Shown here: one piece after another, positions 34,408 through 55,364 of the stretch
How positions within the stretch are numbered: position 1 is the stretch's first letter
Layout: every line of letters starts with the position of its first letter
Assembly: GCA_035623475.1 (NCBI GenBank)
Contig: DASPTK010000089.1
Coordinates: forward strand, 19,279 to 83,278
Reading direction: 5' to 3'
Origin: Gemmatimonadaceae bacterium
GTDB taxonomy: Bacteria; Gemmatimonadota; Gemmatimonadetes; Gemmatimonadales; Gemmatimonadaceae
DNA: 64,000 nt
Notes under the pieces: generated by a model
The model's database searches: none
What the model saw: the letters and a program-made list of their open reading frames with translations, nothing else
What the model was told of the DNA's origin: nothing
Made by a program: the position numbers and the translations under genes

Positions 34408-34410
34408 ATC

Positions 34411-35362: not shown

Positions 35363-35387
35363 GCGCCTGGCCGGCGGCGCCGGTGTC

Positions 35388-36395
35388 ATGCCAGAGCACG
35401 ATGCGCCGATTCCGGCGCCCGGTCTCCACACGATCGTGGTCGAGGCGGATGAGGGCATCCGCCTCGATTTGTTGATTGCCCGCTCGCTGTCGCTGTCGCG
35501 CACCCAGGCGGCCACGCTCATCGCGACCGCGAAGGTGACCGTCAATGGCCGGTCGGAGCGCGCCAGCTACCGGCCGGTTCGAGGTGACCGCCTCGAGGTG
35601 ACCGTCCCCCCGCCTGTCGCGCGGGACGTTGTCCCCGAGCAAATCCCGCTGACCGTCGTCTTCGAGGACGACCACGTCCTCGTGGTCGACAAGCCCGCCG
35701 GGATGGTCGTCCATCCAGCGCCAGGACACTGGACGGGAACCCTGGTGAACGCCCTTCGGGGGCGCGGTACCACCCTGGCCGAGACCACGGCGATGGAGCG
35801 GGCCGGGATCGTCCACCGCCTCGATCGCGACACCTCCGGCTTGCTGCTCGTGGCGAAGAGCGAGCGCGCCCTTCGGACGCTCGGGGCGGCCCTCGCCGCT
35901 CGCCGTATCATTCGTCGTTACGCGGTGTTGGCGTGGGGGCACCTCGGCGCCGACCGGGTCACCGTCGAGCGTCCAATTGCGCGCGATCCGCGAGACCGAA
36001 GGCGCATGGCAGTCGTCAGTACCGGAAGGGCGGCGAAGACCGATTTCGTCCGGCTGGCGCGGTTCGACTCGGCCGATCTGCTGCGCGCACAGCTACATAC
36101 GGGGCGCACGCATCAGATTCGGGTTCATCTCGCCTCCATCGGGCACCCGGTGGTGGGAGATGACGTGTATGGGGGGGGCGGCGGGCGGCGGCTTCTGGCA
36201 TTGCCGCCCCGGCGGCACTTCCTGCACGCGGGGTGGCTGATCTTTCCGCATCCCATCACCGGCAAGCTGGTCGATCTCCGCTCTCCGCTGCCGGACGATC
36301 TCGCGCGGTCGCTCATCGCCGCTGCCGGAGCGTCTGGCCTGGATCCGTCACACGACGCGCTGACCGACCTTGGCTTCTACACTCTCGATCTCTGA
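35388..36395 (+). CDS. rluD: RluA-family 23S rRNA pseudouridine synthase (RluD-like)
   Basis: S4 domain (RLDLLIA...SRTQAATLI), catalytic HRLDRDTSGLLLVAK and TGRTHQIRVHLASIGHPVVGD. Confidence 0.9.
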   Translation: MPEHDAPIPAPGLHTIVVEADEGIRLDLLIARSLSLSRTQAATLIATAKVTVNGRSERASYRPVRGDRLEVTVPPPVARDVVPEQIPLTVVFEDDHVLVVDKPAGMVVHPAPGHWTGTLVNALRGRGTTLAETTAMERAGIVHRLDRDTSGLLLVAKSERALRTLGAALAARRIIRRYAVLAWGHLGADRVTVERPIARDPRDRRRMAVVSTGRAAKTDFVRLARFDSADLLRAQLHTGRTHQIRVHLASIGHPVVGDDVYGGGGGRRLLALPPRRHFLHAGWLIFPHPITGKLVDLRSPLPDDLARSLIAAAGASGLDPSHDALTDLGFYTLDL

Positions 36396-36816
36396 ACAGC
36401 CCGCTCGCCAGCTGGTGATCTTCCGGCTGGCGAACCGCGTGTTTGGAATCGAGCTGTCCTCGATCCGGGAGATTCTTTCGGCGCGTCGGATCACGCGCCT
36501 CCCCGGTGCGCCGCCAACGGTGCTCGGCCTCATCAATGTTCGCGGAACGATCGTGACCGTGATCGATCTCGGCGCCCGGCTCACGGGTGAGCCGGCGCGT
36601 GCCGGCGGGTCGGTCATCCTGGTGGATCACGGAACACGGGCTGTTGGCATGGCGGTGGACGAGGTGATCGACGTCCAACGGTTGGACGACAGCTCGCTCG
36701 GCGAAGACCTGGACGTTGTGGTTTCGGGCGGCGCGGTGCGCGCGCTCGGACGGCACGAGGGTCACGCGGTGGCCCTCCTCGACCCGCAGGACATCATCTC
36801 GCACGTACTCGCCTGA
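36370..36816 (+). CDS. cheW: chemotaxis coupling protein CheW (copy 1)
   Basis: LVIFRLANRVFGIELSSIREILSARRITRLPGAPPTVLGLINVRGTIVTVIDLGARL is a canonical CheW fold. TTG 36370 overlaps the rluD end. Alternative GTG start at 36415. Confidence 0.85.
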   Translation: MASTLSISEQPARQLVIFRLANRVFGIELSSIREILSARRITRLPGAPPTVLGLINVRGTIVTVIDLGARLTGEPARAGGSVILVDHGTRAVGMAVDEVIDVQRLDDSSLGEDLDVVVSGGAVRALGRHEGHAVALLDPQDIISHVLA

Positions 36817-36828
36817 CCGGAGGAGACG

Positions 36829-37191
36829 TTGAGCCACACGGTGCTGATCTGCGACGACGCGATTTTCATGCGGACGATGATCGCAGACATCCTGCAGCAA
36901 TCCGGCTTCGAGATCGTCGGCGAAGCGGAGACCGGCGTGCAGGCCATCGAGCAGTACAAGCGCCTGCGTCCCGACCTCGTCACGATGGACATCGTGATGC
37001 CCGACATGGGCGGGATCGACGCGGTTCGCGAGATCACCAAACTCGATGCGAACGCGAAGATCCTCATGTGCAGCGCCATGGGGCAGCAGGCCCTGGTCGT
37101 GGAAGCGATTCAGGCGGGCGCCAAGGACTTCGTGGTGAAGCCCTTCCAGCCGTCGCGAGTCCTCGAGGCGGTGGCGAGGGTGATGGGGTAG
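36829..37191 (+). CDS. cheY: CheY-like single-domain response regulator
   Basis: TTG 36829 lies 3 nt after GGAGGAG. ICDDAIFMR (acidic pair), DLVTMDIVMPDMGG (phospho-Asp), MCSA, KDFVVKPF (Lys). Confidence 0.9.
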   Translation: MSHTVLICDDAIFMRTMIADILQQSGFEIVGEAETGVQAIEQYKRLRPDLVTMDIVMPDMGGIDAVREITKLDANAKILMCSAMGQQALVVEAIQAGAKDFVVKPFQPSRVLEAVARVMG

Positions 37192-37359
37192 TCCGCGAAC
37201 AGGGACGCAGCCGACCCGGCGCCACCGCCCGCCCGCGCGGTACCCGCCAGCACCGCTCGAACACGCCACGGCCCCGGCTCGACTCTCCCCCCGTCAGGCG
37301 CTCCCGTCGACCACGCCCCACCACAGATACCACCAAACCTCCGCCGACCTCCCTGTCGC

Positions 37360-39342
37360 ATGGACCTCTCCAAATACGCCGAACTTTTCGTCACGGAGAG
37401 CCGCGAGCATCTCTCGGCGTTGAACGAGTCGCTCCTCGAGCTCGAACGCTCACCGACAGCGGCCGAGCCGGTCGGCGCCATCTTCCGCGCCGTCCACACG
37501 GTGAAGGGGATGAGCGCGACGATGGGCTATCGCGCGGTGAGCGAGCTGGCGCACGAGATGGAGAGCGTGCTCGATCACGTGCGGAAGGGGACGCTCGCCG
37601 TCACGCGCGATGTCGTCGACCTCCTCTTCGCGGCGGCCGACGCACTTGAGGAAGCGATCGAGCGATCGGCGCGCGGCGAGGACGACGCGGTGGATGTGAG
37701 AGAGATGATCGCGAAGCTGCACGCTGCCGCCGGCGGAGCCACGGCGCGCAGCGAGCCGGGGCGCCGGGGCGTCTCGGGCGCGCGAGGAGCGCGGCGCCGG
37801 GCCGAGTCGAGGCCGAGCGCGCCGCCCGCCGAGTCTCCGCCTGACGAGTCGTCAGCGGGTCGCCTGGTGCGCGTGCGCCTCTCGCCGGAGACTGTTCTGC
37901 GCGGTGCGCGCGCCTTCGTGGTCGTGCGGCGCGCGGAGGCGCTCGGGCGCGTGCTCGAGGTGGATCCGCCGCTGGCGGCCCTTCAGGCGGAGCAGTTCGA
38001 GCGCGACTTCAGCATCCGCCTCGAGAGCGACGCCGACGCCGAGCGGATCGCCGCTACGCTGCGCGCCGCCGGCGATGTCGAGTCGGTGGAAGTCGAGGGC
38101 GCGGCGCCGGCGTCACCGCCGGCGCCCGATCGTGCGCGCCCGGACGAGCCTCGAGCGCCCGAGGAGCGCGCGCCGCGAGGTGGCGGCCCCGAGCTCGCGC
38201 GCCGCTCCGCGCAGTTCGTGCGCATCGACCTCCGCCGCCTCGACACCCTGATGAATCTGATCGGCGAGCTGGTGATCGCCCGCGGCCGCCTGACGCAGAT
38301 CGCCGGCGGCCTGACGGATCCGGCGCTCGACGAGACGGTGGCCCAGGCCTCGCGCCTGATCGGCGATCTCCAAGAGGAGATCATGCGCAGCCGCATGGTT
38401 CCCGTCGGCCAGGTGTTCGACCGCTTTCCGCGTCTGGTGCGGGACACGGCGCGGGCGGTGGGGAAGGAGGTCTCGTTCAGCATTCAGGGGAAGGAGATCG
38501 AGCTCGACCGCTCCATGCTCGAGGAGATCGGTGAGCCGGTGATGCACCTGCTGCGTAACGCGATCGACCATGGCATCGAGCCGCCGGATGTGCGCGTCGC
38601 CGCCGGGAAGCCGCGCGAAGGACACCTCACGCTCTCGATCGCCCGGGAGCGCAGCACCGTCACGGTGCGGGTGACCGACGATGGCCGCGGCATCGACCGT
38701 ACGCGGGTGCTGCAGAAAGCGCACGAGATGGGCCTCGTTCCGCCCGCGGCGACCGCGCTCTCGGACGATGAGCTGGTGCGCCTCATTGGGCGGCCGGGTT
38801 TCTCGACCGCCGAGCGGGTGACCGACCTCTCGGGGCGGGGTGTCGGGATCGATGTCGTGAATACGCGCGTCCGGTCGCTCGGAGGCTCGGTGGAGATCAG
38901 GTCGGCGGCCGGCGAAGGGACGACGGTGACGACGCGACTGCCGGTTACCCTCGCCATCGTACGCGCACTTCTTGCACGCGTCGCGGACGAGACGTACGCG
39001 GTGCCGCTGACCCACGTGAGCGAGACGGTGGAGCTCGCCGCGTCGGCACGGAAGCAGCTCAAGGGTCGGGATGTCCTCCTCATGCGGGACGATGTGCTTC
39101 CCCTGATCGAGTTCCGCGACCTTCTGCATCTCCCGAAGGCGCCGGCGGAGCCGCACCAGGTGATTGTTCTCGAATCCGGCGAGCGCCGGGCAGCCCTCGT
39201 GGTCGATGAGCTCACCGGCCAGCAGGAGATCGTCGTGAAGACCTTCGATCCAGTCCGAGATGGTCTCGCGTTGTTCAGCGGTGCCACGATCCTCGCCGAC
39301 GGCGCCCCCGCGCTGATCGTCGACGTGGCCAGCCTCCTGTAG
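37360..39342 (+). CDS. cheA: chemotaxis histidine kinase CheA
   Basis: 660 aa. Hpt FRAVHTVKGMSATMGY, P3/P4 (HLLRNAIDHGIE, TDDGRGID, GRGVGIDVV) and a C-terminal CheW-like P5. There is no SD before the ATG. Confidence 0.93.
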   Translation: MDLSKYAELFVTESREHLSALNESLLELERSPTAAEPVGAIFRAVHTVKGMSATMGYRAVSELAHEMESVLDHVRKGTLAVTRDVVDLLFAAADALEEAIERSARGEDDAVDVREMIAKLHAAAGGATARSEPGRRGVSGARGARRRAESRPSAPPAESPPDESSAGRLVRVRLSPETVLRGARAFVVVRRAEALGRVLEVDPPLAALQAEQFERDFSIRLESDADAERIAATLRAAGDVESVEVEGAAPASPPAPDRARPDEPRAPEERAPRGGGPELARRSAQFVRIDLRRLDTLMNLIGELVIARGRLTQIAGGLTDPALDETVAQASRLIGDLQEEIMRSRMVPVGQVFDRFPRLVRDTARAVGKEVSFSIQGKEIELDRSMLEEIGEPVMHLLRNAIDHGIEPPDVRVAAGKPREGHLTLSIARERSTVTVRVTDDGRGIDRTRVLQKAHEMGLVPPAATALSDDELVRLIGRPGFSTAERVTDLSGRGVGIDVVNTRVRSLGGSVEIRSAAGEGTTVTTRLPVTLAIVRALLARVADETYAVPLTHVSETVELAASARKQLKGRDVLLMRDDVLPLIEFRDLLHLPKAPAEPHQVIVLESGERRAALVVDELTGQQEIVVKTFDPVRDGLALFSGATILADGAPALIVDVASLL

Positions 39343-39353
39343 GCGGAACAAGG

Positions 39354-39986
39354 ATGTCTGAGCTGCTCACCCTCACCGATCGCGAGCGCGACGCTCTGCG
39401 CGAGACCGCGAATATCGGCGCCGGCCACGCCGCCACCGCTCTCTCGCAGATGACCGGCCGGAAGATCATGATCACCGTCCCGACGGTGACGATTGCGTCG
39501 TTGGAGGACGTTCCGTCTCGCATCGAGGAGAACGAGGAGCCGATCGCGGCCGTCCTCATGCACATCATGGGCGACCTCACCGGGAGAACGCTGCTGGTCT
39601 TCCCGCGCCACACCGCGCTCTCTCTCGCCCACCTGATGCTCCGACGCCCCCAGAACCCGGCCGCCTCTTTCGGCGAGTTGGAGCAGTCGGCCATCAAGGA
39701 GGCCGGCAACATCCTGAGCGGCGCCTACATGAACGCGCTCAGCGACTTCATGCGTCTGCTTCTGCTCCCCTCGCCGCCGAGCCTCGCCATCGACATGTCG
39801 ACGGCGGTGCTCAACACCGCGTACCTGCAGTTCGGCACCGAGCGGGACATGGTCTTCGCCGTGGAGACGCAGTTCTACTTCGAGGGCCCCGATCTGGATG
39901 ACCCGACCCAGCTCCGGGGCTTCTTCCTCCTCCTCCCCGACGTGGCCTCGCTGCAGGTGATCCTGCGCGCGGTCCGCGTCGCCTGA
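39354..39986 (+). CDS. cheC: CheC-family CheY-P phosphatase
   Basis: Both CheC active-site motifs [D/S]xxxExxN-x22-P are intact: DALRETAN..(22)..P and SAIKEAGN..(22)..P. Confidence 0.85.
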   Translation: MSELLTLTDRERDALRETANIGAGHAATALSQMTGRKIMITVPTVTIASLEDVPSRIEENEEPIAAVLMHIMGDLTGRTLLVFPRHTALSLAHLMLRRPQNPAASFGELEQSAIKEAGNILSGAYMNALSDFMRLLLLPSPPSLAIDMSTAVLNTAYLQFGTERDMVFAVETQFYFEGPDLDDPTQLRGFFLLLPDVASLQVILRAVRVA

Positions 39987-39988
39987 CG

Positions 39989-42700
39989 ATGGCTCCGGCA
40001 CTCGCCTCCGAACGCGATCGCGACATCCTGCGGTCGTTCGCGCGTCGGATCGATCCCTCCGACGCCGGGGCGCACAACAACCTCGGTGTCCTCTACTACC
40101 AGAAGGGGATGTACGAGGAGGCGGTCGGCTCGTTCACCAAGGCGCTCGAGCTCGATCCGAAGATGCAGGTGGCGCAGCGCAACCTGGAGATCGCGTACTT
40201 CAACACCGGCTACTACGACCGGCGCGTCTCCGAGCTACGCGAGCGGCTGCGCACCCATCCCGACGATCGCGATGCTCGTTGGGAGCTCGGTCGTGCCTAC
40301 GCGTCGCTCGGCGACGTGACCGAAGCGGTGACGGAGTTCACCGCGCTCCTCGAGTACTACCCCGACGACATCGGCGCCCTCGTCCAGCTGGGGCTCGCCG
40401 AGAAGTCGAGCGGCGATCTCGCCAAGGCGCAGTGCTGGTTCGACCGGGCGCTCGCGCTCGATGCGGACAGCCCGCTCATCAACTACTACTTGGGCGAGGT
40501 CCTCTACAACCGGGGGCTCAACGAGGATGCCCTCACCCGACTGCGCCGGTCGATCGAGCTGAGCCCGGACAACCCGGACGCGCACTACCTGGTGGGATTC
40601 GTGCTCGGCGACATGGGGCGTCACGACGAAGCCCGCGCCGCCACCAAGCGCGCGATCGAGCTCAATCCCTCGCTCTCACGGGCGCAGGCGAACCTCTCGC
40701 TCGACCACTATAGCTCGGCCAAGTACGGAGAGCTGGTGCCGGAACGCTCCGAGCGGCGCACGGCGCAGCTCGAGGTGGCCGACGGCCACCTGGCGCACTT
40801 CAATCTGGGGCTCGCCTTCCGCCAGAAGGGCTACTACGCCGAGGCCCTCAAGGAGTATCGGCTGGCGTTGGAGCGCAACGAGGACCGCGCCCTCGTGCTC
40901 CAGGCGATGGCCGAAGTGCACCTCCTGAAGCGGGACGCGACGGCGGCGGTGGAGCTCTACGACAAGATCCTCGGCGAGGAGCCGGTGAGCCCGAAGCTCT
41001 GGTGCGAGCGGGGCGTCGCGCTCCACCAGAACGGCAATCATGCCGAGGCGGCGGCGTCGTATCGGCGAGCGCTCGCCATCGACGCCACCTACGCGATCGC
41101 CCACAACAACCTCGGCGTGGCCCTCTTCCATGGCGGCGACAGCGACGGTGCTGTGGACTCGTTCCGGGCCGCGCTCGCGGCCCAGCCAGCCTTCGTGAAG
41201 GCGTGGCTCAACCTCGCGCTCCTCCTCTACAAGGGGAAGCGCCTCCAGTTGAGCCTCGATTCGTACCGCCAGGTGCTGACCGTGGAGCCGGAGCAGCCCG
41301 AGGCCTGGAACGGCATCGGCTTGGTGCTGGCCGAGCTGAAGAAGTTCGAGGATGCGCGCAACGCCTTCAGCCGGGCGATCCATGCGCGACCGGCGTTCGC
41401 CGAGGCGCACTACAACCTCGGCTTCACCCTCTCGAACCTCGGCGACTTCGACGGTGCACTCCGCGCGACCAAGCGCGCCCTCGAGCTCGACCCGTACTAC
41501 GTGGCGCAGAAGTTCGAGCTGGCGCTCGACCTCGAGTACGAGCACCCGGATCTCTCGATCGCCCCCGATCTCGGCGGCGCGCAGCGCACCGACGGCGGCA
41601 TCGATGCCTTCGCCTTCGATCCGCACCGCCTCGAATCGCTCTTCAGCGAGCTGGCGCCAGCGCCGACGCCCGCCGAGGAGGACGAGGAGGAGACGCCGAT
41701 CGAAAGCCCCTACACGATGGCGCTCGACTATCTGGCGAAGGGGATGCTCGACCGGGCGGCGGCCGAAGCGAATCGCGTCCTCGGTCGCGGCGGTGACAGC
41801 GCCGATGGACTCACCATTCTGGGCGACGTCTACTTCCGCCAGGGCGTCTTCGGTGAGGCGTTGGAGCGCTATCGCGCGGCCCGCAGCGCGAACGGCGTTG
41901 CGCCGCGGGCGCTGGCCGGCGAGGCCCGCGCGCTGTTGGCGCTCGGACGTTCCGATGAAGCCCGCGCGGTGGCCGAGTCGCTGCTCAAGGTCGACGACGC
42001 GAATGTCGAGTCGCTCCTCCTGGTCGCGAGTGCGCGGGCGCAGGCACGCGATCCGGCCGCGGCACGCGAGCTGTTGGCTGAGGCGCGCCGGCTCGCCCCG
42101 GCACGCGCTGACGTCATGAAGCAGCTCGGCGACGTCGCCCGCGCCGCCGGTGACCCGGATGGCGCGATTACCGCCTATCGGAACGCGCTCGATCTCGATC
42201 GCGACTTCGCACTCGTCCACTACGAGCTGGCCGGGCTCCTCGCGGCGCGAGGCGCCGGCGACGAGGCCGAGCGATCGCTGCTCTCGGCGCTCGATGCCGT
42301 TCCGACTTACGTCGAGGCGACTCTCGCGCTGGCCGCGCTCCGCCGGCGCCTCGGACGCGCCCGCGATGCGGTGCCGCCCCTCGCCGACCTGCTCCGACGC
42401 GACCCGAGCAACATCGACGCGCTCCTGCTACTGGCGCAGATCCTCGTCGAGCAGACGCGCCCTGCCGATGCCGCGGTCGCCATCGATCGCATTCTGCGCT
42501 TCGACCCGCGTCACGCCGGTGCCCTCTTCTTCCAGGGCATGCTCTTCGCCGACCAGCATCGCTATCGCGACGCGATCGGGCGCTGGCAGCGGGTCGTCGA
42601 GATCGCGCCGGACAGTGAGTGGGCGCAGCGCGCGCGCCGCGAGGCCCGCACCGCCGCCGATCTCCTGCGCATCTTTCGAAGCCGACAGGAGGCGCACTGA
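39989..42700 (+). CDS. large tetratricopeptide-repeat protein (903 aa)
   Basis: About 20 TPR-like 34-mers run through the protein (AHNNLGVLYYQKGMYEEAVGSFTKALELDP, AHYNLGFTLSNLGDFDGALRATKRALELDP etc.). No TM, HAMP or MCP signalling motif. Confidence 0.85.
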   Translation: MAPALASERDRDILRSFARRIDPSDAGAHNNLGVLYYQKGMYEEAVGSFTKALELDPKMQVAQRNLEIAYFNTGYYDRRVSELRERLRTHPDDRDARWELGRAYASLGDVTEAVTEFTALLEYYPDDIGALVQLGLAEKSSGDLAKAQCWFDRALALDADSPLINYYLGEVLYNRGLNEDALTRLRRSIELSPDNPDAHYLVGFVLGDMGRHDEARAATKRAIELNPSLSRAQANLSLDHYSSAKYGELVPERSERRTAQLEVADGHLAHFNLGLAFRQKGYYAEALKEYRLALERNEDRALVLQAMAEVHLLKRDATAAVELYDKILGEEPVSPKLWCERGVALHQNGNHAEAAASYRRALAIDATYAIAHNNLGVALFHGGDSDGAVDSFRAALAAQPAFVKAWLNLALLLYKGKRLQLSLDSYRQVLTVEPEQPEAWNGIGLVLAELKKFEDARNAFSRAIHARPAFAEAHYNLGFTLSNLGDFDGALRATKRALELDPYYVAQKFELALDLEYEHPDLSIAPDLGGAQRTDGGIDAFAFDPHRLESLFSELAPAPTPAEEDEEETPIESPYTMALDYLAKGMLDRAAAEANRVLGRGGDSADGLTILGDVYFRQGVFGEALERYRAARSANGVAPRALAGEARALLALGRSDEARAVAESLLKVDDANVESLLLVASARAQARDPAAARELLAEARRLAPARADVMKQLGDVARAAGDPDGAITAYRNALDLDRDFALVHYELAGLLAARGAGDEAERSLLSALDAVPTYVEATLALAALRRRLGRARDAVPPLADLLRRDPSNIDALLLLAQILVEQTRPADAAVAIDRILRFDPRHAGALFFQGMLFADQHRYRDAIGRWQRVVEIAPDSEWAQRARREARTAADLLRIFRSRQEAH

Positions 42701-43854
42701 TGGCGATCGAAGGACCGCTTCGCGAGCTCGGGATCCACGATGTCTTCCAGTTGCTCGATCTCAGCCGGAAGACCGGCATCCTGTCCATCACCTCACCCCT
42801 GCGCGACAACCAGGGGGCGGTCTTCTTCGAGCGTGGAGCGGTGGTCTTCGCCGCCATCCGCACGAATCCGCACCCACTCGGCGAGCTCCTCCTTCGCGCT
42901 GGCAAGATCACCGAGAGCGACCTTGCCCGGGCGCGCGACGCGCAGGCCCGCGGCGACGGTTCGAAGCGCCTCGGGGATCTGCTGGTGGAGGCCGGCGCGA
43001 TCTCCCGCAAGGAGCTGGAGCGCCAGGTCAGATTTCAGGTGGAAGAGGTGATCTTCGAGCTGATGTCGTGGCGAGAGGGATTCTTCTCCTTCGAGGAGCG
43101 CGCCGAGGTGGACGCTCCGGCGGAGGCCAACATCCGCATCTCCACGGAGTCGCTGCTGATGGAGGCCGCCCGCCGGATCGACGAGTGGTCGCGCATCGAA
43201 GCCAAGGTGCCGAACCTCGACGTCGTCGCCGTGCTCGCCGATGTCGGCGACGATCATCCGGGATTCCTCGAGCTGCTCCCGCGCGAATGGGAGGTACTCT
43301 CGGAGATCGATGGAGAGAGGAACCTGCGCGCGATCGCGCGGGCGATCGCCCACAGCGACTTCGACGTCGCGCGGGTGATCTACGGCTTGATCACCACCGG
43401 GATCGTCGCCCTCAAGACGGAGAGGCCTCTCGAGCCGGAGGCGGCACCTACCCCGACACCGGAGCCCGACGCGCCGGTGCTCGAGCCGGCACGTGAGGCC
43501 CTTCGCTCGGGCGACGCCGAGGGTGCTCTCGCGGCGGCGAACGCGGTGTTGACGGCCGACGTGGCGTCGGTGGAGGCGCGCCTGGTGGTCTCGCGCGCTC
43601 TGATGAAGCTGGGCCGGCCGATCGACGCCGCCGAAGCGCTCCGCGCGGCGCTCAACGGCGACGCGCTCAACCCGTCGCTTCATCGCGAGCTCGGATTCTG
43701 CGCGGCCTGGCGCGGCGACCTGCTCGCGGCCCTCGGAAGTTGGGAACGCTACCTCCGCATGCAGCCGGCGGCAGCGGACGCGTCGCACGTTCGGGCCGTC
43801 GCCGACGCCGCGTCTCGCTTGCGTGATCTCTTGCAGGAGCACCTGGATGTCTGA
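42700..43854 (+). CDS. PATAN/DUF4388 domain protein with C-terminal TPR-like region (384 aa)
   Basis: ATG 42700 shares 1 nt with the upstream TGA. N-terminus MAIEGPLRELGIHDVFQLLDLSRKTGILSITS...GAVFFERGAVVFA is the DUF4388 hallmark. Next is a helical insert LGELLLRAGKITESDLARA..RLGDLLVEAGAISRKELE. The C-terminus is TPR-like. Confidence 0.8.
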   Translation: MAIEGPLRELGIHDVFQLLDLSRKTGILSITSPLRDNQGAVFFERGAVVFAAIRTNPHPLGELLLRAGKITESDLARARDAQARGDGSKRLGDLLVEAGAISRKELERQVRFQVEEVIFELMSWREGFFSFEERAEVDAPAEANIRISTESLLMEAARRIDEWSRIEAKVPNLDVVAVLADVGDDHPGFLELLPREWEVLSEIDGERNLRAIARAIAHSDFDVARVIYGLITTGIVALKTERPLEPEAAPTPTPEPDAPVLEPAREALRSGDAEGALAAANAVLTADVASVEARLVVSRALMKLGRPIDAAEALRAALNGDALNPSLHRELGFCAAWRGDLLAALGSWERYLRMQPAAADASHVRAVADAASRLRDLLQEHLDV

Positions 43855-45545: not shown

Positions 45546-45551
45546 GCGTCC

Positions 45552-46160: not shown

Positions 46161-46161
46161 C

Positions 46162-48087: not shown

Positions 48088-49712
48088 TGGCGATCAAGGG
48101 CAGTCTCCGCGAGGCTAGTCTCCCCGACGTCCTGCAGCTCCTGGCGATGGGGCAGAAGACCGGCTGCCTCAGCGTCACCGACCGCAACAACTTCGGCTAC
48201 ATCTACTTCGACAAGGGGCGCATCTCGTACGCCTCGATCGTCAATCGTCGCGATCGTCTCGGCGACACGCTGGTGAAGAACGGCGTCATTACCCAGCTCG
48301 AGCTCGATGTGGCGGTCGACTCGCAGTCGCGCGGCCAGCGCAACAAGAAGCTCGGCGAGATCCTGATCGAGCAGAACATCCTCACCCGCGAGGAGCTGCA
48401 CCGCTACATCCGGGTCCAGATCGAGGAGGCCGTCTACTATCTCTTCACCTGGACACAGGGGACGTTCAGCTTCGAGGCGGAGATGCGCCCCGAGGACCAC
48501 GACGTCCTCGTCTCGATCAACCCCGAGTCGCTCCTCCTCGAGGGCGCGCGGCGGGTGGACGAGTGGAGCCTGATCGAGAAGAAGGTGCCGAGCTTCGACC
48601 TCATCTTCGAGGTCGATCGGGCCCGCCTGGCGACGAGCGAGGCGCAGCTCACGCGGGCCCAGGAGCAGCTGGTGCCGCTCATCGATGGGCGACGCGACGT
48701 GTCGCAGCTCATCGACGCCTCCGGGCTTGGAGAGTTCGAGGTCGGCAAGGCCCTCTATGCGCTGGCGACGGCCGGCTTCCTGCACCTCACCGGAAAGTCG
48801 CGTCCCGCCGATGACACGATGCGCGAGGCGCGCGTCGAGGAGCACCGGAACCTCGGTGTCGCCTTCTACAAGACGGCGATGTTCGAGGAGGCGACGCGCG
48901 AGCTGCGGCGGGTGGTGGAGCTCAACGACGGCGACGTGCATGCGCGCTTCTTCCTCGGGCTGGTCGCGATGCGGGAGGGGAAGTGGAGCGAGGCGGTGCT
49001 CGTACTTCGTGAGGCATCATCGCTCCCAGGGGCGAAGCACGCCGTCTTCCACAACCTGGCGTACGCGCTCGAGCGCCTCGGCCGGTACGAGGATGCAAGG
49101 GTCGCGTTGGACGAGGCGGTCGCGCGAGGCGGCGAGGACGATCCGCGCGTGCGGACATCGCTCGGGGTGCTGGCCCTCAAGGCCGGCGATCTCGAGGAGG
49201 CCGTCGCGTGCTTCGGCGCCGCCCGGACGCTCTGGGGGAAGAGGGCGCCGTCGGCGGCATGGTTCCACTACGCCGCGCTCGCGGCGGCCCTCGCCGGCGA
49301 GCTCCCGCGCGCGGTGACGCTGGCGACCGAGGGGCTCCAGTCGCATCCGCACGCCGGTGCGCTCTGGAACACGCTCGCCGTTCTCGAGGAGCGACGGGGT
49401 GACTTCACCGCCGCTGGCCAGGCGGCCGACCAGGCGCTGCACGACGACGGGACTCTGCCGCAGGTGCACAAGAACATCGGCGACGGGCACTACCGCGCCT
49501 CGCGCTACGACGAGGCGCTCGAAGCGTATCAGCGGGCGATCAAGCTGAATCCGGCGCTCGGCGGGGACGTCTACTTCAAGCTCGGCAACATCCGCTTCAA
49601 GTGGCAGGAACGGGAGCAGGCGGTGGCGTACTGGGAGCGGGCGCTCGCGCTCAACCCGGAGAACGACGTGATTCGGGCGAATCTGGATCTCGTCAAGTCG
49701 ACGCCGGCATGA
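48087..49712 (+). CDS. PATAN/DUF4388 domain protein with C-terminal TPR array (541 aa)
   Basis: N-terminus MAIKGSLREASLPDVLQLLAMGQKTGCLSVTD..GYIYFDKGRISYA is paralogous to the 42700 gene. Helical insert LGDTLVKNGVITQLELDVA..KLGEILIEQNILTREEL. About 7 TPRs follow. The ATG shares 1 nt with the upstream TGA. Confidence 0.8.
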   Translation: MAIKGSLREASLPDVLQLLAMGQKTGCLSVTDRNNFGYIYFDKGRISYASIVNRRDRLGDTLVKNGVITQLELDVAVDSQSRGQRNKKLGEILIEQNILTREELHRYIRVQIEEAVYYLFTWTQGTFSFEAEMRPEDHDVLVSINPESLLLEGARRVDEWSLIEKKVPSFDLIFEVDRARLATSEAQLTRAQEQLVPLIDGRRDVSQLIDASGLGEFEVGKALYALATAGFLHLTGKSRPADDTMREARVEEHRNLGVAFYKTAMFEEATRELRRVVELNDGDVHARFFLGLVAMREGKWSEAVLVLREASSLPGAKHAVFHNLAYALERLGRYEDARVALDEAVARGGEDDPRVRTSLGVLALKAGDLEEAVACFGAARTLWGKRAPSAAWFHYAALAAALAGELPRAVTLATEGLQSHPHAGALWNTLAVLEERRGDFTAAGQAADQALHDDGTLPQVHKNIGDGHYRASRYDEALEAYQRAIKLNPALGGDVYFKLGNIRFKWQEREQAVAYWERALALNPENDVIRANLDLVKSTPA

Positions 49713-50521
49713 CGACCGATCAGAGCGTCGACATGGCCTTCATCGCCCTCACGGCCAAGATCTCCCGTGATCGCGGCTTTCGCTGCGCGAGCTACAAGGA
49801 CAAGTGTCTACGGCGCCGGATCGCCGTGCGGATGCGCGCCCACGGCGTGCACACCTACGGCGACTACGCCCGCGTGCTCGACGCCGTGCCTCACGAGTAC
49901 GACCTGCTGATCGATGCGCTGACGATCAACGTCACCAAGCTCTTTCGGAACTGGGAGACCTTCGCCGCCATCGAGAAGAGCGTCGCGCCGGTCCTCTTCG
50001 CGCGCGATGAGACGCGCTTGCGGGTCTGGAGCGCCGGCTGCGCATCGGGGGAGGAGGCCTACTCGCTGGCGATCCTCTTCCACCGCTACGCCCTGGCGAA
50101 CCGAAAGCGCGTGGAGCGTGTGCACGTCGTCGGTACCGACATCGATCGGGCGAGTCTCGCCGCCGCCGAGCAGGGCGCCTTCGGCGAGGCGGCGTTCGCC
50201 GACACCCCGGCGGAGCTGCGGCAGCTCTACTTCTCGCCGCGCTCGCCCCACGTCGTCGCGCCGGAGGTCCGCGCGATGGTGCGCTTCAAGCGCCATGATC
50301 TTCTTCACGAGCCGGCGCCGGAGGGGCAGCACCTCATCACCTGCCGCAACGTGGTGATCTACTTCGATCGGGACTCGCAGGAAGCCCTGTTCGAGCGGTT
50401 CGCGGACGCGCTTCTCCCCGGTGGCGTCCTCGTCCTCGGCAAGGTTGAGACGCTGCTCGGCGCCGCGCGCGCCCGCTTCGCGGCGATCGACGGACGTCAA
50501 CGCATCTTCCGGCGCCTGTGA
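49709..50521 (+). CDS. cheR: chemotaxis protein methyltransferase CheR
   Basis: ATGA overlap upstream. TKLFRNWETF, RVWSAGCASGEEAYSLAI (SAM site), ITCRNVVIYFD. Confidence 0.9.
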   Translation: MTTDQSVDMAFIALTAKISRDRGFRCASYKDKCLRRRIAVRMRAHGVHTYGDYARVLDAVPHEYDLLIDALTINVTKLFRNWETFAAIEKSVAPVLFARDETRLRVWSAGCASGEEAYSLAILFHRYALANRKRVERVHVVGTDIDRASLAAAEQGAFGEAAFADTPAELRQLYFSPRSPHVVAPEVRAMVRFKRHDLLHEPAPEGQHLITCRNVVIYFDRDSQEALFERFADALLPGGVLVLGKVETLLGAARARFAAIDGRQRIFRRL

Positions 50522-51000
50522 CCGAGACGAGAGTGCGGGTGGCCGATGCCGCCGTCCTCCGCGGTGTGGGGATCCTCTCCACCGTGGGGCTCGGCTCCTG
50601 CGTCGCCATCGCTCTATACGATCCGGAGGCCGCCGTGGGGGGGCTCGCGCACATCATGCTCCCCAGCGAGACGATGTCGAAGGACCGGTGCAATCGCGCC
50701 AAGTTTCCGTCGAGCGCCGTTCCGCTCCTTCTCGAACGCATGCGCGGGTTGGGCGCGCGCGATGAGCGCATCCGCGCCCGGATCGTCGGTGGGGCGAGCA
50801 TGTTCACGTCGCTCCTCCCCGCCGGCGGCCTCCAGATGGGGGAGCGGAATCTCCTCGCCACGCGTACCGCGCTGGCCCGCGCCCAGATTCCGATCATTGC
50901 CGAGGAGGTGGGGGGCGAGCACGGCCGCAGCGTCTACCTCCACGTCGGCGACGGACGGCTCGAGGTGCGCTCGATGATGAGGGGCAATGTCGTCCTCTAG
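50518..51000 (+). CDS. cheD: chemoreceptor glutamine deamidase CheD
   Basis: GTGA overlap upstream. GLGSCVAIALYD (catalytic Cys), GLAHIMLP (His), GGASMF. Confidence 0.88.
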   Translation: MTETRVRVADAAVLRGVGILSTVGLGSCVAIALYDPEAAVGGLAHIMLPSETMSKDRCNRAKFPSSAVPLLLERMRGLGARDERIRARIVGGASMFTSLLPAGGLQMGERNLLATRTALARAQIPIIAEEVGGEHGRSVYLHVGDGRLEVRSMMRGNVVL

Positions 51001-52108
51001 TCCCGTGCGCACGGTCCTGGTGGTGGACGACAGCGCCTTCATGCGCAAGCTCGTGTCGGAGATGATCGATGCGAGCGGCGAGTTTCGCGTCGTCGGAACG
51101 GCGCGCAACGGCATCGATGCGCTCAAGAAGGTGCACGCCCTCGATCCGGACATCGTCACCCTCGACGTCGAGATGCCGGAGCTCGACGGGATCGGCGCCC
51201 TCGGCTACATCATGAGCGAGTCGCCGCGGCCGGTGGTGATCCTGAGCGGTGCGGCGACGGGAGCGGCCGACGACGTCACGATCCGGGCGCTCGAGCTCGG
51301 TGCCGTCGAGTTCGTCCGCAAGCCGTCGGGTCCGATCAGCCTCGATCTCCCGGCGGTGCGCGATCAGCTGCTCGACGCATTGCGAGCGGCGGCGCAGGTG
51401 AACCTCCGCAGTGTCGACCCGTTGGCGCGTCCGACGATCGGCGGCCCGGCCACGCGCGTGCCGCGCTCCGAGGCGTGGGCCAACCGCGCGATCGCCATCG
51501 CCTCGTCCACCGGCGGGCCGCGCGCGCTGGCGGAGGTCATTCCCCATCTGCCGGGCGACCTCGACGCGGCGGTGCTCGTCGTGCAGCACATGCCCGCAGG
51601 CTTCACGCGCAGCCTCGCCGAGCGCCTCGATGCGCAGAGCCGCCTCGCCGTTCGTGAGGCGCGTCATGGCGAGCGGCTCGTGCGGGGACGAGTCTACGTC
51701 GCCCCGGGCGGATATCACATGCGGGTGGCGGCGGAGCAGGGTGGCCCGACGATCGCTCTCGACGACTCGCCGCCGATCTGGGGCGTGCGTCCGGCCGCCG
51801 ATCCGCTCTTCCGGTCGCTCGCCGAGCATTTCCGGGAGGGGGCAGTCGGCGTCGTGCTCACCGGGATGGGGCGCGATGGAGCGGTGGGGCTGCGGGCCAT
51901 CCACGACGCCGGCGGTCTGGGGATCGCGCAGGATCGGGAGACCTCGATCATCTTCGGCATGCCGCACGCCGCCGCCACCGGCGGTGGTGCATCGCGGATC
52001 CTCCCGCTGGCGGAGATCGCGCCGGCGCTCGTGGCCGCGTGTACGCCCGGTCAGGCGGTGGCGGGAGAATCGTCGGACCCGCGCCAGCCGACGAGGGCCG
52101 GGCCATGA
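50987..52108 (+). CDS. cheB: protein-glutamate methylesterase/deamidase CheB (REC + esterase)
   Basis: VLVVDDSAFMR, DIVTLDVEMPELDG (REC). ASSTGGPRAL (Ser), VVQHMPAGFT (His), TGMGRDG (Asp). Confidence 0.92.
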   Translation: MSSSSPVRTVLVVDDSAFMRKLVSEMIDASGEFRVVGTARNGIDALKKVHALDPDIVTLDVEMPELDGIGALGYIMSESPRPVVILSGAATGAADDVTIRALELGAVEFVRKPSGPISLDLPAVRDQLLDALRAAAQVNLRSVDPLARPTIGGPATRVPRSEAWANRAIAIASSTGGPRALAEVIPHLPGDLDAAVLVVQHMPAGFTRSLAERLDAQSRLAVREARHGERLVRGRVYVAPGGYHMRVAAEQGGPTIALDDSPPIWGVRPAADPLFRSLAEHFREGAVGVVLTGMGRDGAVGLRAIHDAGGLGIAQDRETSIIFGMPHAAATGGGASRILPLAEIAPALVAACTPGQAVAGESSDPRQPTRAGP

Positions 52109-52605
52109 CGGTCGGGGCGCCGAGCGGCCGACGGGAGGGAGCGCCGGAGGGCTCCGAGACCCTCCTTCCCGAACATCTGCTCTTCCGCATCGGGGTCGAG
52201 CTCTTCGCCATCCCCCTCGCCCACGCGGAGGAAGCGGTGGAGGGCCTCCTGTGGGATGTCCTCCCCGACCTGCCTTTCGGAGTGCTCGGCGTCGCGACTC
52301 TTCGCGGGCGACTCCTTCCCGTGTATTCTCCCCAGCGGCCGCTCGGGATCGAGCGCAGCGATCCGTACGGCGTGACACTCGTGCTGCGTCACGAGCATCG
52401 CGCACTCGGCTTCGCCGTGGACGATGTGGAGGACGTGCTGAGCGTTCCGCCGGAATCGATTCGCCCGGCGCCGCTCCCGGACACCGGGGAGCGCGTGGTG
52501 CGGGGAGTGGTGCGGCACGGCGACGAGCTCGTCGCGCTGCTCGATACCGCTGCGCTCTTCCGGGCCTGCGGCGTCGGCGATGGCGAGAGAGGAGGCGCCG
52601 GATGA
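52105..52605 (+). CDS. cheW: CheW-like protein (copy 2, 166 aa)
   Basis: ATGA overlap with the cheB stop. LLFRIGVELFAIPLAHAEEAVE...VLGVATLRGRLLPVYS..ALGFAVDDVEDVL fits the CheW pattern. It has a ~25 aa N-terminal extension. Confidence 0.8.
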   Translation: MTVGAPSGRREGAPEGSETLLPEHLLFRIGVELFAIPLAHAEEAVEGLLWDVLPDLPFGVLGVATLRGRLLPVYSPQRPLGIERSDPYGVTLVLRHEHRALGFAVDDVEDVLSVPPESIRPAPLPDTGERVVRGVVRHGDELVALLDTAALFRACGVGDGERGGAG

Positions 52606-53078
52606 GCGCATCACCGAGTCAGCTGGTCACCTTCCGCCTCGGGCCCGATCGCTTCGCCGCCGACATCTTCGCCGTCGAGCGCGTGCTTCGATACACGCCG
52701 CCGACGCCGGTGCCCAATCTGCCGGAGTGGCTGGCCGGCGTGCTCGACTACCAGTCGCGTGTGGTTCCGGTGCTCGATCTGCGGGCCCGCCTGGGTCTGG
52801 AGCGGGCGGCGCCGCGCCTCGAGACGAGGATCATCGTCTTCTCGGTCGACGATGACTGGATCGGCGCCGTGGTGGACGCGGTGCTGGAGGTGGTTCCCCT
52901 CGCGGCGGGCGAGCTCTCCCCCCCGCCGCCGCTCTTTCGTGGGCTGGCGGCCGACTATCTGCTCGGACTCGTCAGGCGACCGGACGGCCTGCTGATCGTC
53001 CTGGATGTCCGACGCCTGCTGACGGCCACGGAACGGCTCGCTCTGACGCGGGCGGAGGAGGCGGCGCGCGGTGGCTGA
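52602..53078 (+). CDS. cheW: CheW-like protein (copy 3, 158 aa)
   Basis: ATGA overlap upstream. LVTFRLGPDRFAADIFAVERVLRYTPPTPVPNLPEWLAGVLDYQSRVVPVLDLRARLG..WIGAVVDAVLEV. Confidence 0.85.
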   Translation: MSASPSQLVTFRLGPDRFAADIFAVERVLRYTPPTPVPNLPEWLAGVLDYQSRVVPVLDLRARLGLERAAPRLETRIIVFSVDDDWIGAVVDAVLEVVPLAAGELSPPPPLFRGLAADYLLGLVRRPDGLLIVLDVRRLLTATERLALTRAEEAARGG

Positions 53079-53937
53079 CACGCCGACCACGGCTCTCCGT
53101 GCCCGCTTCGCGGCCATCGAGGCACGGCTCGAAAGCCCGAACGCCGCCGCCGAGCGCGACACGCTCAAGGCGGACATCATCGCCCTCTTCCGACTGGCCG
53201 AGGGGGAGATCGCGAGCCTGACGACGCTGCGCGAGGACATCAAGAAGCTCGTCGAGAGATGGAAGCAGCTCCAGCAAGCGGCTGCGCCATCGAACGCGCC
53301 CGTGTTCAGCGGCGACCGGCCCAACGTGGTGACCGACCACATCGGGGCCTCGACCTTCGTCGAGAAGGGGTGGAACTCGATCTCGCTGGGCGACTACGAC
53401 GGCGCGGAGCGCGCCCTGACCAAGGCCCTCGAGCTCTCGCCCAACGACCCGCAGACCGAATCGCTTCTCGGCTGGTCGCAGATGCTCCAGGAGAAGTACG
53501 ATCAGGCGCTGCTCAACTTCCAGCGCGTGCTGATGCGGCAACCGACGAACTCTCTCGCCCGCATCAACCTCGGGTACATCTGCCTCAAGAAGCGCATCTT
53601 CGGAGAGGCGATCGAGCACCTGTCCAAGGCGATCCGCCTCGACAACGATCGAAAGGCGACGCTCTACGCGCATTTCTACCTCGGGCTGGTGTACGCCGAG
53701 CGGGAGATGTTCGAGGATGCGCAGACGTTCTTCCGGAAGACGCTGGCCCTCGGCCCAAACCTGATCGAGGCCTACTACGAGCTGGGGCGCGCGCTCTGGT
53801 TCGATGGCAAGCAGGAAGAGGCGAAGCAGGCGTGGCGCGATGGGTTGGCGGCCAACAAGTTCAATCCATGGGGCAAGCGGTGCGGCGAGATGCTCAAGCA
53901 CGTCGAGCAGGGAGGCGTGCCCGCGCGGTCCGCCTAG
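53071..53937 (+). CDS. coiled-coil + TPR repeat protein (288 aa)
   Basis: The GTG start overlaps the cheW3 end by 8 nt. TPRs: GWNSISLGDYDGAERALTKALELSPNDP, INLGYICLKKRIFGEAIEHLSKAIRLD, YYELGRALWFDGKQEEAKQAWRDGL. Confidence 0.8.
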   Translation: MADTPTTALRARFAAIEARLESPNAAAERDTLKADIIALFRLAEGEIASLTTLREDIKKLVERWKQLQQAAAPSNAPVFSGDRPNVVTDHIGASTFVEKGWNSISLGDYDGAERALTKALELSPNDPQTESLLGWSQMLQEKYDQALLNFQRVLMRQPTNSLARINLGYICLKKRIFGEAIEHLSKAIRLDNDRKATLYAHFYLGLVYAEREMFEDAQTFFRKTLALGPNLIEAYYELGRALWFDGKQEEAKQAWRDGLAANKFNPWGKRCGEMLKHVEQGGVPARSA

Positions 53938-53942
53938 CCCTG

Positions 53943-54926
53943 GTGGTGGCGCTCGCGGTGCCGGCCGCCGCCCGGCGCGTCGATCCGCCCCAGCGCCTGA
54001 CGAGTGGCCGCTTCACGATGGTCGCGTACGCCTCCGACCTTCCGCTCGCGCGAAGCCTCCTCGACAGCGCGCTGGCCCACGACAGCTTCCCGGGGCTCCC
54101 TCGTCCGACCGCTCCGGTGACCGTCGCCGTCGCCCCCGATACCCGGCGCTTTCGCGAATGGGCAGGGGAGGGCGCTCCCGAGTGGGGAGCCGCGATCGCC
54201 ATCCCCGCCGAGTGGCGCGTGGTGATGCAGGGACGCTCGGCGGGAAGCGATGCCGGCAATCCCTTCTCCGTGCTGCGCCACGAGCTCGCGCACCTCGCCC
54301 TCCACGAGTACCTCGACGATCTGCCGCCGCGATGGTTCGACGAAGGCTACGCCAGCCTCTGCGCCCGCGAGTGGGGACGGGATGAGGTGCTGGCGGCGAG
54401 CGTCGGCCTGCTGCTGCATGGCGTGCCTTCGCTCGACTCGCTCGATGCCGGCTTCACCGGCGGCGCGATGCGCGCCAGCACCGCCTATGCGCTCGCCTAC
54501 CGGGCGGTGGCCGATCTCGCCGCGCTCGACCCGGAGCGCGGGCTCACACTCTTCTTCGGCTACTGGCGCAGCACCGGCTCGATCGATCGCGCGATGCGCG
54601 AGGCATACGGCCTGACGGAGAGCGCCTTCGAGATCGAATGGCGCCGACGGACCATGCAGCGCTACGGAGCGCTCGCCCTTACGGCCAACCTGTCGCTCGC
54701 CCTGGCCATCATGGGAATCCTCATCGGCCCCTTCTGGCTGGCGCGCCGGCAGCGCGATCGGGCGAAGCTCGACGCGATGCGCCGCGACGAGGCGGCGGCC
54801 GAGCGAGCCGAGCGCGAAGGAATCATCGCCTCGCTTCTGGGAGAATCTCCCACCGACGGGCCCACCTCGAGTGCCCAGCGAGCGCCTCCGGGCGAACATC
54901 GCGAGCGTGGGGGCGATTCGACGTAA
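53943..54926 (+). CDS. MA-clan (Peptidase_MA_2-like) zinc metallopeptidase with C-terminal TM anchor
   Basis: GTG 53943 (or CTG 53940) gives a signal-like VVALAVPAAA. HELAHLALHEY followed by WFDEGYASL (HExxH...E). TM ALALTANLSLALAIMGILIGPFWLA, then a charged tail. Confidence 0.65.
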   Translation: MVALAVPAAARRVDPPQRLTSGRFTMVAYASDLPLARSLLDSALAHDSFPGLPRPTAPVTVAVAPDTRRFREWAGEGAPEWGAAIAIPAEWRVVMQGRSAGSDAGNPFSVLRHELAHLALHEYLDDLPPRWFDEGYASLCAREWGRDEVLAASVGLLLHGVPSLDSLDAGFTGGAMRASTAYALAYRAVADLAALDPERGLTLFFGYWRSTGSIDRAMREAYGLTESAFEIEWRRRTMQRYGALALTANLSLALAIMGILIGPFWLARRQRDRAKLDAMRRDEAAAERAEREGIIASLLGESPTDGPTSSAQRAPPGEHRERGGDST

Positions 54927-54945: not shown

Positions 54946-54974
54946 TTGACACGTCATTGACGAAACTCTATCCT
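54946..54974 (+). promoter_or_regulatory. sigma70-like promoter candidate (TTGACA-17 nt-TATCCT)
   Basis: TTGACA at 54946-54951, a 17-nt spacer, TATCCT at 54969-54974, in a locally AT-richer stretch. The predicted transcription start is ~1-3 nt before ATG 54983. Confidence 0.35.
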
Positions 54975-55299: not shown

Positions 55300-55364
55300 C
55301 ATCGCGGCCGGTTGGACAATTGGGCCGAGCGCGACCGGATATTCTTGCAGGAGGTCTATTCAAC

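Follow-up and report, generated by a model that had tools for sequence, protein, structure and literature searches.

A conserved Gemmatimonadales gene block in which an MglA/MglB-type polarity module interrupts a chemosensory gene set

In a 64,000-nt stretch of DNA from a Gemmatimonadaceae soil bacterium (contig DASPTK010000089.1, positions 19,279 to 83,278; the whole stretch is called the window below), 19 genes on the + strand at 36370-54926 combine the components of a chemosensory (che) pathway with those of an MglA/MglB small-GTPase polarity module. The window has a G+C content of ~69%, and in the databases the identical and nearest proteins carry annotations as products of Gemmatimonadaceae metagenome-assembled genomes. 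A first-pass annotation, made from the sequence alone, had described these genes as a receptor-less chemosensory operon with the polarity module embedded inside it, and by open reading frame listing, translation and Pfam searches we recovered all 19 genes at the coordinates and with the domains that it had given (Table 1). The gene order was likewise confirmed by Pfam: cheW-cheY-cheA-cheC are followed by a 903-residue TPR protein (TPR903), a PATAN/TPR protein, a TPR/Roadblock fusion, a Roadblock protein, mglB, mglA, a gene with two DnaA-type AAA+ modules and a second PATAN/TPR gene, after which come cheR-cheD-cheB-cheW-cheW, a 288-residue TPR protein (TPR288) and a peptidase-like gene. The reported junctions could also be reproduced, with neighbouring genes overlapping by 1-14 nt or lying <=12 nt apart, and with a single larger gap of 168 nt before cheA.

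Table 1 Features of the che/mgl block and its 3' border, with window positions and the matches that support each assignment (aa, amino acids)
Feature	Positions	Strand	Matches	Remarks
cheW1, coupling protein, 148 aa	36370-36816	+	Pfam CheW, E 2e-31	In all loci but L085
cheY, single-domain response regulator, 120 aa	36829-37191	+	Pfam Response_reg	
168-nt spacer between cheY and cheA	37192-37359	+	No Rfam family match	Strikingly C-rich, G-poor
cheA, five-domain kinase (Hpt-P2-dimerisation-HATPase-CheW)	37360-39342	+	Pfam	Without receiver domain
cheC, predicted CheY-P phosphatase	39354-39986	+	Pfam CheC, two stretches	Both D/S-x3-E-x2-N motifs
TPR903, all-TPR protein, 903 aa	39989-42700	+	Many TPR Pfam matches	No transmembrane segment; in all variants
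PATAN(DUF4388)-TPR protein 1 (PATAN1)	42700-43854	+	Pfam DUF4388 (PF14332), E 3e-33; NF053729, 40.2 bits, aa 59-113	
TPR + Roadblock/LC7 fusion, 281 aa	43847-44692	+	Pfam TPR families; Robl_LC7, 22.7 bits	Robl_LC7 just under cutoff 23
Stand-alone Roadblock/LC7 protein, 115 aa	44689-45036	+	Pfam Robl_LC7, 26.5 bits	Generic roadblock PDB matches
mglB-like Roadblock, 170 aa	45033-45545	+	Myxococcus xanthus MglB 6h5b/6izw, E ~1e-6	Best solved relatives
mglA, Ras-like small GTPase, 202 aa	45552-46160	+	M. xanthus MglA (5ymx), 251 bits, E 5e-74	
Tandem DnaA-domain-III AAA+, 641 aa	46162-48087	+	Pfam Bac_DnaA x2, E 3e-106	
PATAN(DUF4388)-TPR protein 2 (PATAN2)	48087-49712	+	Pfam DUF4388 (PF14332), E 2e-38; NF053729, 43.2 bits, aa 57-111	
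cheR, receptor methyltransferase	49709-50521	+	Pfam CheR and CheR_N	
cheD, receptor deamidase and CheC partner	50518-51000	+	Pfam CheD, E 1e-26	
cheB, receiver-methylesterase	50987-52108	+	Pfam Response_reg and CheB_methylest	
cheW2	52105-52605	+	Pfam CheW, E 4e-24	Poorly conserved or absent in many loci
cheW3	52602-53078	+	Pfam CheW, E 3e-32	
TPR288, coiled-coil N-terminus and TPR repeats, 288 aa	53071-53937	+	Pfam TPR families	In every variant, 55-73% identity
MA-clan metallopeptidase-like protein (HELAH)	53943-54926	+	Peptidase_MA_2, 27.3 bits	Below cutoff 32.4; in every variant
tRNA-Val(TAC)	55226-55300	+	Rfam, 75.8 bits; ARAGORN	Marks 3' border of block

The che and mgl parts meet at two borders, the first of which (39986/39989) is a gap of 2 nt and the second (49709-49712) a 4-nt ATGA in which the stop codon of PATAN2 overlaps the start codon of cheR. 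A promoter and terminator scan gave no convincing site of either kind at these two borders. The terminator-like sites found (7 observed against 5.6 expected) correspond to background, so that the scan is uninformative on internal terminators, and the only good sigma-70-like site, at 54946-54974, lies past the last gene and ahead of tRNA-Val, which is the sole match of the Rfam scan. Tight packing on the + strand extends upstream as well, the end of rluD overlapping the start of cheW1 by 26 nt, and since the packing continues into rluD, spacing alone cannot mark the 5' border. Two gene starts were corrected. The tandem DnaA-like gene is read from GTG 46162, 1 nt past the mglA stop, because an identical 641-aa database protein (P0001) exists, and for the peptidase-like gene the most probable start is GTG 53943 or 53946.

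The first-pass annotation had proposed gene-neighbourhood searches as a check, and these show that the arrangement is no chance juxtaposition in one genome, as the order was found in 18 other Gemmatimonadales loci (L001-L014, L081, L085, L086 and L087). When an alignment of the tandem DnaA protein served as query against species-representative genomes, among the matches listed were 14 true relatives (L001-L014), all of them from Gemmatimonadota, and 66 ordinary dnaA genes (L015-L080). By tblastn of the 19 window proteins against the 14 loci, the gene order is the same wherever the contig reaches. Over the 18 loci, identity to the tandem AAA+ protein falls from 73% to 31% (31-34% at the most distant ones); in an exhaustive search of representatives the family reaches down to 32-35% identity, and by the source names of its named members it is confined to Gemmatimonadales. 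The remaining four loci carry the same block at the same chromosomal place; one of them, L087, comes from a cultured strain with a complete genome, Gemmatimonas groenlandica TET16 (CP053085.1, block at ~1.704-1.726 Mb), and G. aurantiaca T-27 probably carries the block too. The address shared by the window and these four loci has divIVA-pnp-ileS-dksA-like-lspA-rluD upstream (window 29721-36395) and, downstream of the block (window 55226-63999), tRNA-Val, the gene for a 610-aa TPR protein and rsmH-ftsL-ftsI-murE-murF-mraY.

Spacing and synteny are insufficient to prove an operon, and the argument is therefore carried by the interleaving of the two gene sets and by the pattern of lineage variants. 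In L085 (3024-15366), CheA, all CheW proteins, CheR, CheD and CheB have been lost, and what is kept is CheY-CheC-TPR-PATAN-TPR/Robl-Robl-MglB-MglA-2xDnaA-PATAN-TPR-peptidase, with every phosphorylation-site residue of CheY retained. L081 (932-16689) is without CheB and the two distal CheW proteins and has a CheA without P2. The Gemmatimonas type, represented by L008 (2034-17742) and L087 (2038-17440), lacks MglB, both other Roadblock proteins (the TPR/Roadblock fusion among them) and CheR, and has a longer MglA; this MglB-less layout agrees with the published GAU_1409 listing of G. aurantiaca. A smaller variation is seen in L005, where an extra AAA_22 ATPase gene (15957-16754) stands between cheB and cheW. 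L081 and L008 lose different che genes, and CheY, CheC and the core Mgl genes are never lost, the invariant core consisting of CheY, CheC, the ~900-aa TPR protein, PATAN1, MglA, the tandem AAA+ protein, PATAN2, the ~290-aa TPR protein and the peptidase-like protein. Across the variants CheY and CheC thus stay with the GTPase module and not with the kinase. Their retention beside the Mgl module in the kinase-less L085 argues that CheY is the coupling element, and is the strongest comparative argument available. Our preferred interpretation, for which we see a somewhat better than even chance, is that the block is one functional unit, in which an F1-like phosphorelay would send its CheY/CheC output to an MglA switch, the motor of the type IV pilus being its likely target.

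On the chemosensory side, CheA, CheY, CheC, CheD, CheR and CheB, all thought intact at first pass, have catalytic or phospho-acceptor motifs that are readable in the translations. The expectation that the set would fall into an ACF/Tfp-like class was not borne out: CheY, CheC and CheA instead resemble the Thermotoga/archaeal (F1-like) type, a class call that refers to relative similarity to solved structures and NCBIfam references. CheY matches Thermotoga maritima CheY (1tmy) with 170 bits and ~68% identity, as read off the alignment by eye. Among its PDB matches Thermotoga comes first and archaeal CheYs second, with Escherichia coli CheY outside the top 20, and it scores 130 bits with the archaeal CheY model of NCBIfam against 62 bits with the E. 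coli-type model. Residues D9, D10, D54, S82, F101 and K104 are invariant across 7 orthologues, and with 69-92% identity across loci CheY is the most conserved protein of the block. CheC, whose gene is kept in every variant including L085, has its best match in the NCBIfam model CheC_Thtogales (164 bits), and the best solved relatives of CheA are the T. maritima and E. coli proteins, P3-P5 scoring higher to T. maritima. The F1-type gene set is present, with CheC and CheD alongside CheA, CheW, CheY, CheB and CheR (Pfam), and given both CheC and CheD and the Thermotoga-like CheY, CheC and CheA, the che set looks F1-like. The label "receptor-less" holds in so far as there is no MCPsignal protein among the Pfam-scanned open reading frames of the window, but the trait is unremarkable and ordinary for che operons, since CheR, CheB and CheD imply receptors encoded elsewhere. 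Receiver domains occur within the block in CheY and CheB only (Pfam).

Judged by sequence comparison, the GTPase is a genuine MglA. As claimed at first pass, its motifs are intact, and the P-loop, the arginine of DRTLFFDF (equivalent to R53) and YTVPGQ, in which TxxGQ replaces DxxGQ, can all be seen in the alignment with 5ymx. MglA identity amounts to 72-83% across the loci with MglB and to 59% in the MglB-less L008, where the protein has diverged; together with CheY it is by far the most conserved. The 170-aa Roadblock protein, whose gene lies immediately upstream of mglA, scores 21.5 bits with Pfam Robl_LC7, under the cutoff of 23, and from its sequence is presumed to be the cognate GTPase-activating protein of MglA. 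Pairwise BLASTP revealed no recognisable mutual similarity among the three Roadblock proteins, including that between the 115-aa protein and MglB, and they are thus not recent duplicates. For the 115-aa protein an equivalence to MglC could not be established.

The tandem AAA+ protein consists of two complete DnaA domain III modules that are 37% identical to each other, and the Walker A and B residues (G-K-T, DD) and the arginine residues are invariant in both halves. In an AlphaFold (AF2) model compared by Foldseek, each module matches DnaA domain III only, with 45% identity and a TM of 0.87 to Bacillus subtilis DnaA domain III (8bv3_A). There is no Bac_DnaA_C match and no recognisable DnaA domain I, and alignments to full-length Aquifex DnaA span only ~234 columns, which correspond to domain III. 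Sequence and model together describe a tandem AAA+ protein without the DNA-binding domain IV, which is not a replication initiator. Between the modules the AF2 model places a confident helical linker domain, and it ends in a C-terminal tail (aa 600-641, window 47959-48084) that is predicted to be disordered, with a predicted local distance difference test (pLDDT) score <50. Within this tail F619, E623, K624, W627, W629, P630, G634 and R635 are invariant across ten homologues, which gives the tail the look of a docking peptide; one of the block's four TPR proteins may be its partner. A collinear relative in L083 (9249-11465), with 35% identity across aa 1-533, carries a receiver domain (REC) in place of the tail and adjoins an Hpt/REC relay and a REC-HD-GYP protein. 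Looser, giant DnaA-module proteins fused to MshEN are found in L084 (2681-13179) beside a prepilin peptidase (PilD) and a PilB-like ATPase; being loosely related and non-collinear, they were rejected as family members and give weak support only.

Both PATAN proteins are without a C-terminal receiver domain and carry TPR repeats instead (Pfam). In each, the match to NCBIfam NF053729, defined as an "MshE-related c-di-GMP-binding motif" (cyclic di-GMP, c-di-GMP; curated cutoff 38 bits), coincides with a helical insertion of the PATAN domain. For the AF2 model of PATAN2 aa 1-240 (pLDDT 85.8), the top Foldseek match in the PDB is 5htl_B, Vibrio cholerae MshE with c-di-GMP (57 columns, root-mean-square deviation 1.2 A, prob 1.00), and the next matches are c-di-GMP-bound Thermus PilF domains; matches of a PATAN model to GATOR1/KICSTOR were rejected as unreliable (prob 0.3-0.57, root-mean-square deviation ~16 A). 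A PDB sequence search with PATAN2 returned TPR matches only, the MshEN link coming from NCBIfam and the fold search. The MshEN motif consists of two tandem 24-residue stretches of the form RLGxx(L/V/I)(L/V/I)xxG(L/V/I)(L/V/I)xxxxLxxxLxxQ, the PATAN insertion sequences fit the published motif RLGxxLVxxGxIxxxxLxxxVxxQ (PMC5013675), and most PATAN orthologues keep at least one MshEN-like motif. By these motifs, and for PATAN2 also by the predicted fold, the helical insertion of both PATAN domains looks like an MshEN-type four-helix module predicted to bind c-di-GMP. None of the literature that we found describes the insertion of PATAN as an MshEN module.

By analogy with SgmX, a 14-TPR effector of MglA that recruits PilB (PMC11580455), TPR903 is a candidate MglA effector or scaffold. 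The peptidase-like protein, for whose orthologues the Peptidase_MA_2 family is also on record, has a short hydrophobic N-terminus, a charged tail and, close to the C-terminus, a single transmembrane helix. As the sole membrane protein of the block it may serve as a membrane or polar anchor. A weak match to flagellinolysin (E 2e-4) was disregarded.

If the block is one unit, its parts might be connected as follows. Receptors encoded elsewhere would control CheA through the three CheW proteins and be adapted by CheR, CheB and CheD, and CheC would reset CheY~P, which would itself dock on a component of the GTPase module. Three such components are candidates: the MglB/Roadblock complex, on the precedent of Myxococcus FrzX~P, which localises in an MglB-dependent manner (bioRxiv 10.1101/137695); a PATAN domain, given the PATAN-receiver fusions of cyanobacterial PatA-type regulators; and the tandem AAA+ protein, given the receiver fusion in L083. 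Docking would change either the GTP state of MglA or its place in the cell, and MglA-GTP, together with TPR903 and the two PATAN-TPR proteins, would then recruit or release a polar machine, with c-di-GMP probably gating the PATAN-TPR proteins as a second input. Our best guess for this machine is the type IV pilus extension motor; a PATAN domain alone binds PilB1 and PilC (bioRxiv 10.1101/2021.06.11.447907), and one genome with the block, that of G. groenlandica, contains type IV pilus as well as flagellar genes (PMC7844134).

Several observations weigh against such a unit. There is no pil or fli gene within the 64-kb window, and nothing resembling the RomR/RomX exchange factor could be recognised among the proteins of the block. 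The likeness of TPR903 to SgmX is a generic TPR similarity, and the MshEN-like motifs are non-canonical, with a spacer of 7 residues where the canonical form has 5, and with one of the two motifs imperfect in each protein. CheY, CheC and CheA resemble flagellar F1-type proteins, which makes a purely flagellar role of the che genes possible, and the housekeeping genes on either side show synteny equal to that of the block, so that part of its conservation may be general collinearity. One alternative, which we consider unlikely, is that two independent systems share an address: an ordinary flagellar che operon and a separate polarity module, held together by regional collinearity (divIVA-ileS-lspA-rluD ... 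rsmH-ftsI-mur). The near-Thermotoga CheY, a CheC nearest to the Thermotogales model, a classic five-domain CheA, flanks that are equally syntenic in all loci, tight spacing that continues upstream of cheW and the flagellar genes of Gemmatimonas all speak in its favour. What it accommodates poorly is the Mgl module splitting the che set into cheWYAC and cheRDBWW with tight stop/start junctions at both borders, the losses in L081 and L008, which differ in the che genes concerned and never include CheY, CheC or the core Mgl genes, and the CheY and CheC of L085, whose persistence beside MglA without a kinase is hard to explain if CheY is purely flagellar. Within the single-unit reading, too, CheY is so close to flagellar-type CheY that it may still act on the flagellar switch as well. 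In G. groenlandica, genes for type IV pili occur together with flagellar genes, and this, together with occasional budding, leaves room for a dual role of CheY that includes the flagellum, or for a role in division or budding (PMC7844134).

This last role, in which the block would govern polar growth, division-site choice, budding or cell-cycle coupling and not motility, is in our view quite improbable. The block always lies between divIVA-...-rluD and rsmH-ftsL-ftsI-murE-murF-mraY, although adjacency to the dcw cluster may be coincidence, and it does encode a DnaA-type AAA+ protein, albeit one that is without the DNA-binding domain IV and whose looser relatives adjoin a prepilin peptidase and a PilB-like ATPase. 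In Gemmatimonas species, division is by binary fission and occasionally by budding (PMC7844134), whereas PATAN domains and MglA have been tied experimentally to type IV pili. That the genes on the Mgl side serve the chemoreceptor array as accessory parts, acting in its polar positioning or assembly and not as a downstream output, would fit the three stand-alone CheW proteins, the several TPR scaffolds, the lack of a dedicated output regulator besides CheY and the membrane-anchored peptidase-like protein invariant in all variants, but it is very unlikely, since in L085 the Mgl side is complete although CheA and every CheW are gone, so that the module needs no block-encoded array, and since MglA/MglB modules elsewhere act on motility machines.

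Returning to the block as a single signalling unit, we see a smaller but appreciable chance that it represents a previously unrecognised chemosensory output, in which the inputs of CheY~P, a small GTPase and c-di-GMP would come together at a Roadblock/PATAN-TPR/tandem-AAA+ assembly that positions a polar machine, the DnaA-type module having been co-opted from replication control into polarity signalling and PATAN being a generally c-di-GMP-gated adaptor. In such a scheme the tandem AAA+ protein could be a signalling or timing device.

Among characterised systems, the Frz-Mgl system of M. xanthus is similar in joining a CheA/CheW/CheY-type pathway to a bona fide MglA and an MglB-like Roadblock protein, and it offers counterparts for the extra Roadblock paralogues (MglC), the large TPR protein (SgmX) and a single-domain regulator as plausible trigger (FrzX). 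The genomic arrangement differs. In Myxococcus, as the first-pass annotation had noted, frz and mglBA are separate loci, with mglA encoded away from its signalling partners (PMC4316618), whereas the che and mgl genes of Gemmatimonadales form one interleaved block. There are further differences: unlike in FrzE and FrzCD, this CheA has no fused receiver and the block has no receptor gene; no equivalents of RomR, RomX or FrzZ were recognised in the block, and its Che proteins are Thermotoga-like. The block moreover adds the invariant tandem AAA+ protein, the two PATAN-TPR proteins and the membrane peptidase-like protein, and belongs to another phylum, Gemmatimonadota.

PATAN genes adjoining Group 1 mglA/mglB have been recorded before (Makarova et al. 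2006; Wuichet and Sogaard-Andersen 2015). In the 2015 survey of MglA, GAU_1409 of G. aurantiaca appears as "PATAN>MglA>-PATAN>", with the che genes and the AAA+ gene ("-") unnamed, next to the entry for a second MglB>MglA pair elsewhere in that genome, GAU_1115. Such surveys record MglB and PATAN neighbours only, unlike the che-embedded 19-gene form described here. The cyanobacterial Tax/Pix (PatA-type) operons, like this block, bring PATAN proteins into a chemosensory operon, but there PATAN is fused to a receiver and is the output domain, binding PilB1 and PilC, whereas here PATAN-TPR proteins occur with a separate receiver (CheY), MglA/MglB and the AAA+ protein are intercalated and the operon has no receptor. 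With the Thermotoga/Bacillus-type (F1-like) set the block has all seven protein types in common, the CheC/CheD pair among them, but it has eight non-che genes in the middle and no flagellar linkage in the window.

Similar mixtures of likeness and difference are found at the level of single proteins. As in MshEN proteins (V. cholerae MshE, T. thermophilus PilF), the PATAN insertions have tandem motifs above the NCBIfam cutoff and a predicted four-helix module that superposes at 1.2 A, but the module is inserted in the PATAN domain and not placed N-terminally on a secretion ATPase. Each AAA+ half keeps the Walker A/B, sensor and arginine residues of DnaA and Hda, whereas the tandem modules with their helical linker, the conserved C-tail motif, the location of the gene in a signalling cluster and the receiver fusion of one relative set it apart from those proteins.

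The first-pass annotation was aware of no characterised system of this composition, and our search agrees with it: in the searchable literature on che clusters with mglA, on Gemmatimonas MglA and on MshEN with PATAN, no description of the system was found, the only prior mention being the GAU_1409 listing without che genes. Chemosensory control of MglA polarity (Frz) and PATAN-MglA-MglB neighbourhoods are already known. What appears to be new, judged from the genomes compared, is that MglA/MglB lie embedded within an F1-like che operon, an arrangement conserved throughout the order, for which no description was found in the searchable literature, and neither did we find described the invariant tandem AAA+ and peptidase-like partners, the co-inheritance of CheY/CheC with MglA or the MshEN-type insertion in PATAN.

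To our knowledge, a chemosensory kinase talking to a small-GTPase polarity module is known from one organism only, Myxococcus. Its polarity parts are scattered over the genome, and the links between them, such as FrzX-MglB, the exchange factor and the effectors, were found slowly. The present block offers a full candidate parts list in one place, with variants that already indicate the core, and cultured Gemmatimonas strains that carry it make the coupling directly testable, as a second compact system leading from sensing to polarity. It also nominates three new types of player in bacterial polarity, namely a DnaA-derived tandem AAA+ protein, PATAN-TPR proteins as putative c-di-GMP receptors and a membrane MA-peptidase-like anchor. 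If the MshEN-type insertion is general, PATAN domains, including those of PatA-type regulators, may sense c-di-GMP.

Some minor features of the locus complete the description. Read in the cheA frame, the spacer between cheY and cheA is free of start codons up to 37360, and its length is unconserved, at 24-100 nt in related loci. Opposite cheW2 and cheW3 lie two antisense open reading frames, 52051-52626 (-) and 52611-53393 (-), with high third-position G+C; they were rejected as genes, being shadow frames typical of high-GC DNA, and the CheW Pfam matches (4e-24, 3e-32) and the orthologues back the + strand. Elsewhere in the window, and unrelated to the che/mgl block, are aceK and the genes for citrate synthase and isocitrate lyase, which together indicate a regulated glyoxylate shunt, and cdaA, which encodes a c-di-AMP synthase and stands between folP and a TMEM260-like glycosyltransferase gene (these four occupying 3202-4947 (-), 12697-14031 (+), 19026-20318 (+) and 26221-27051 (+)).

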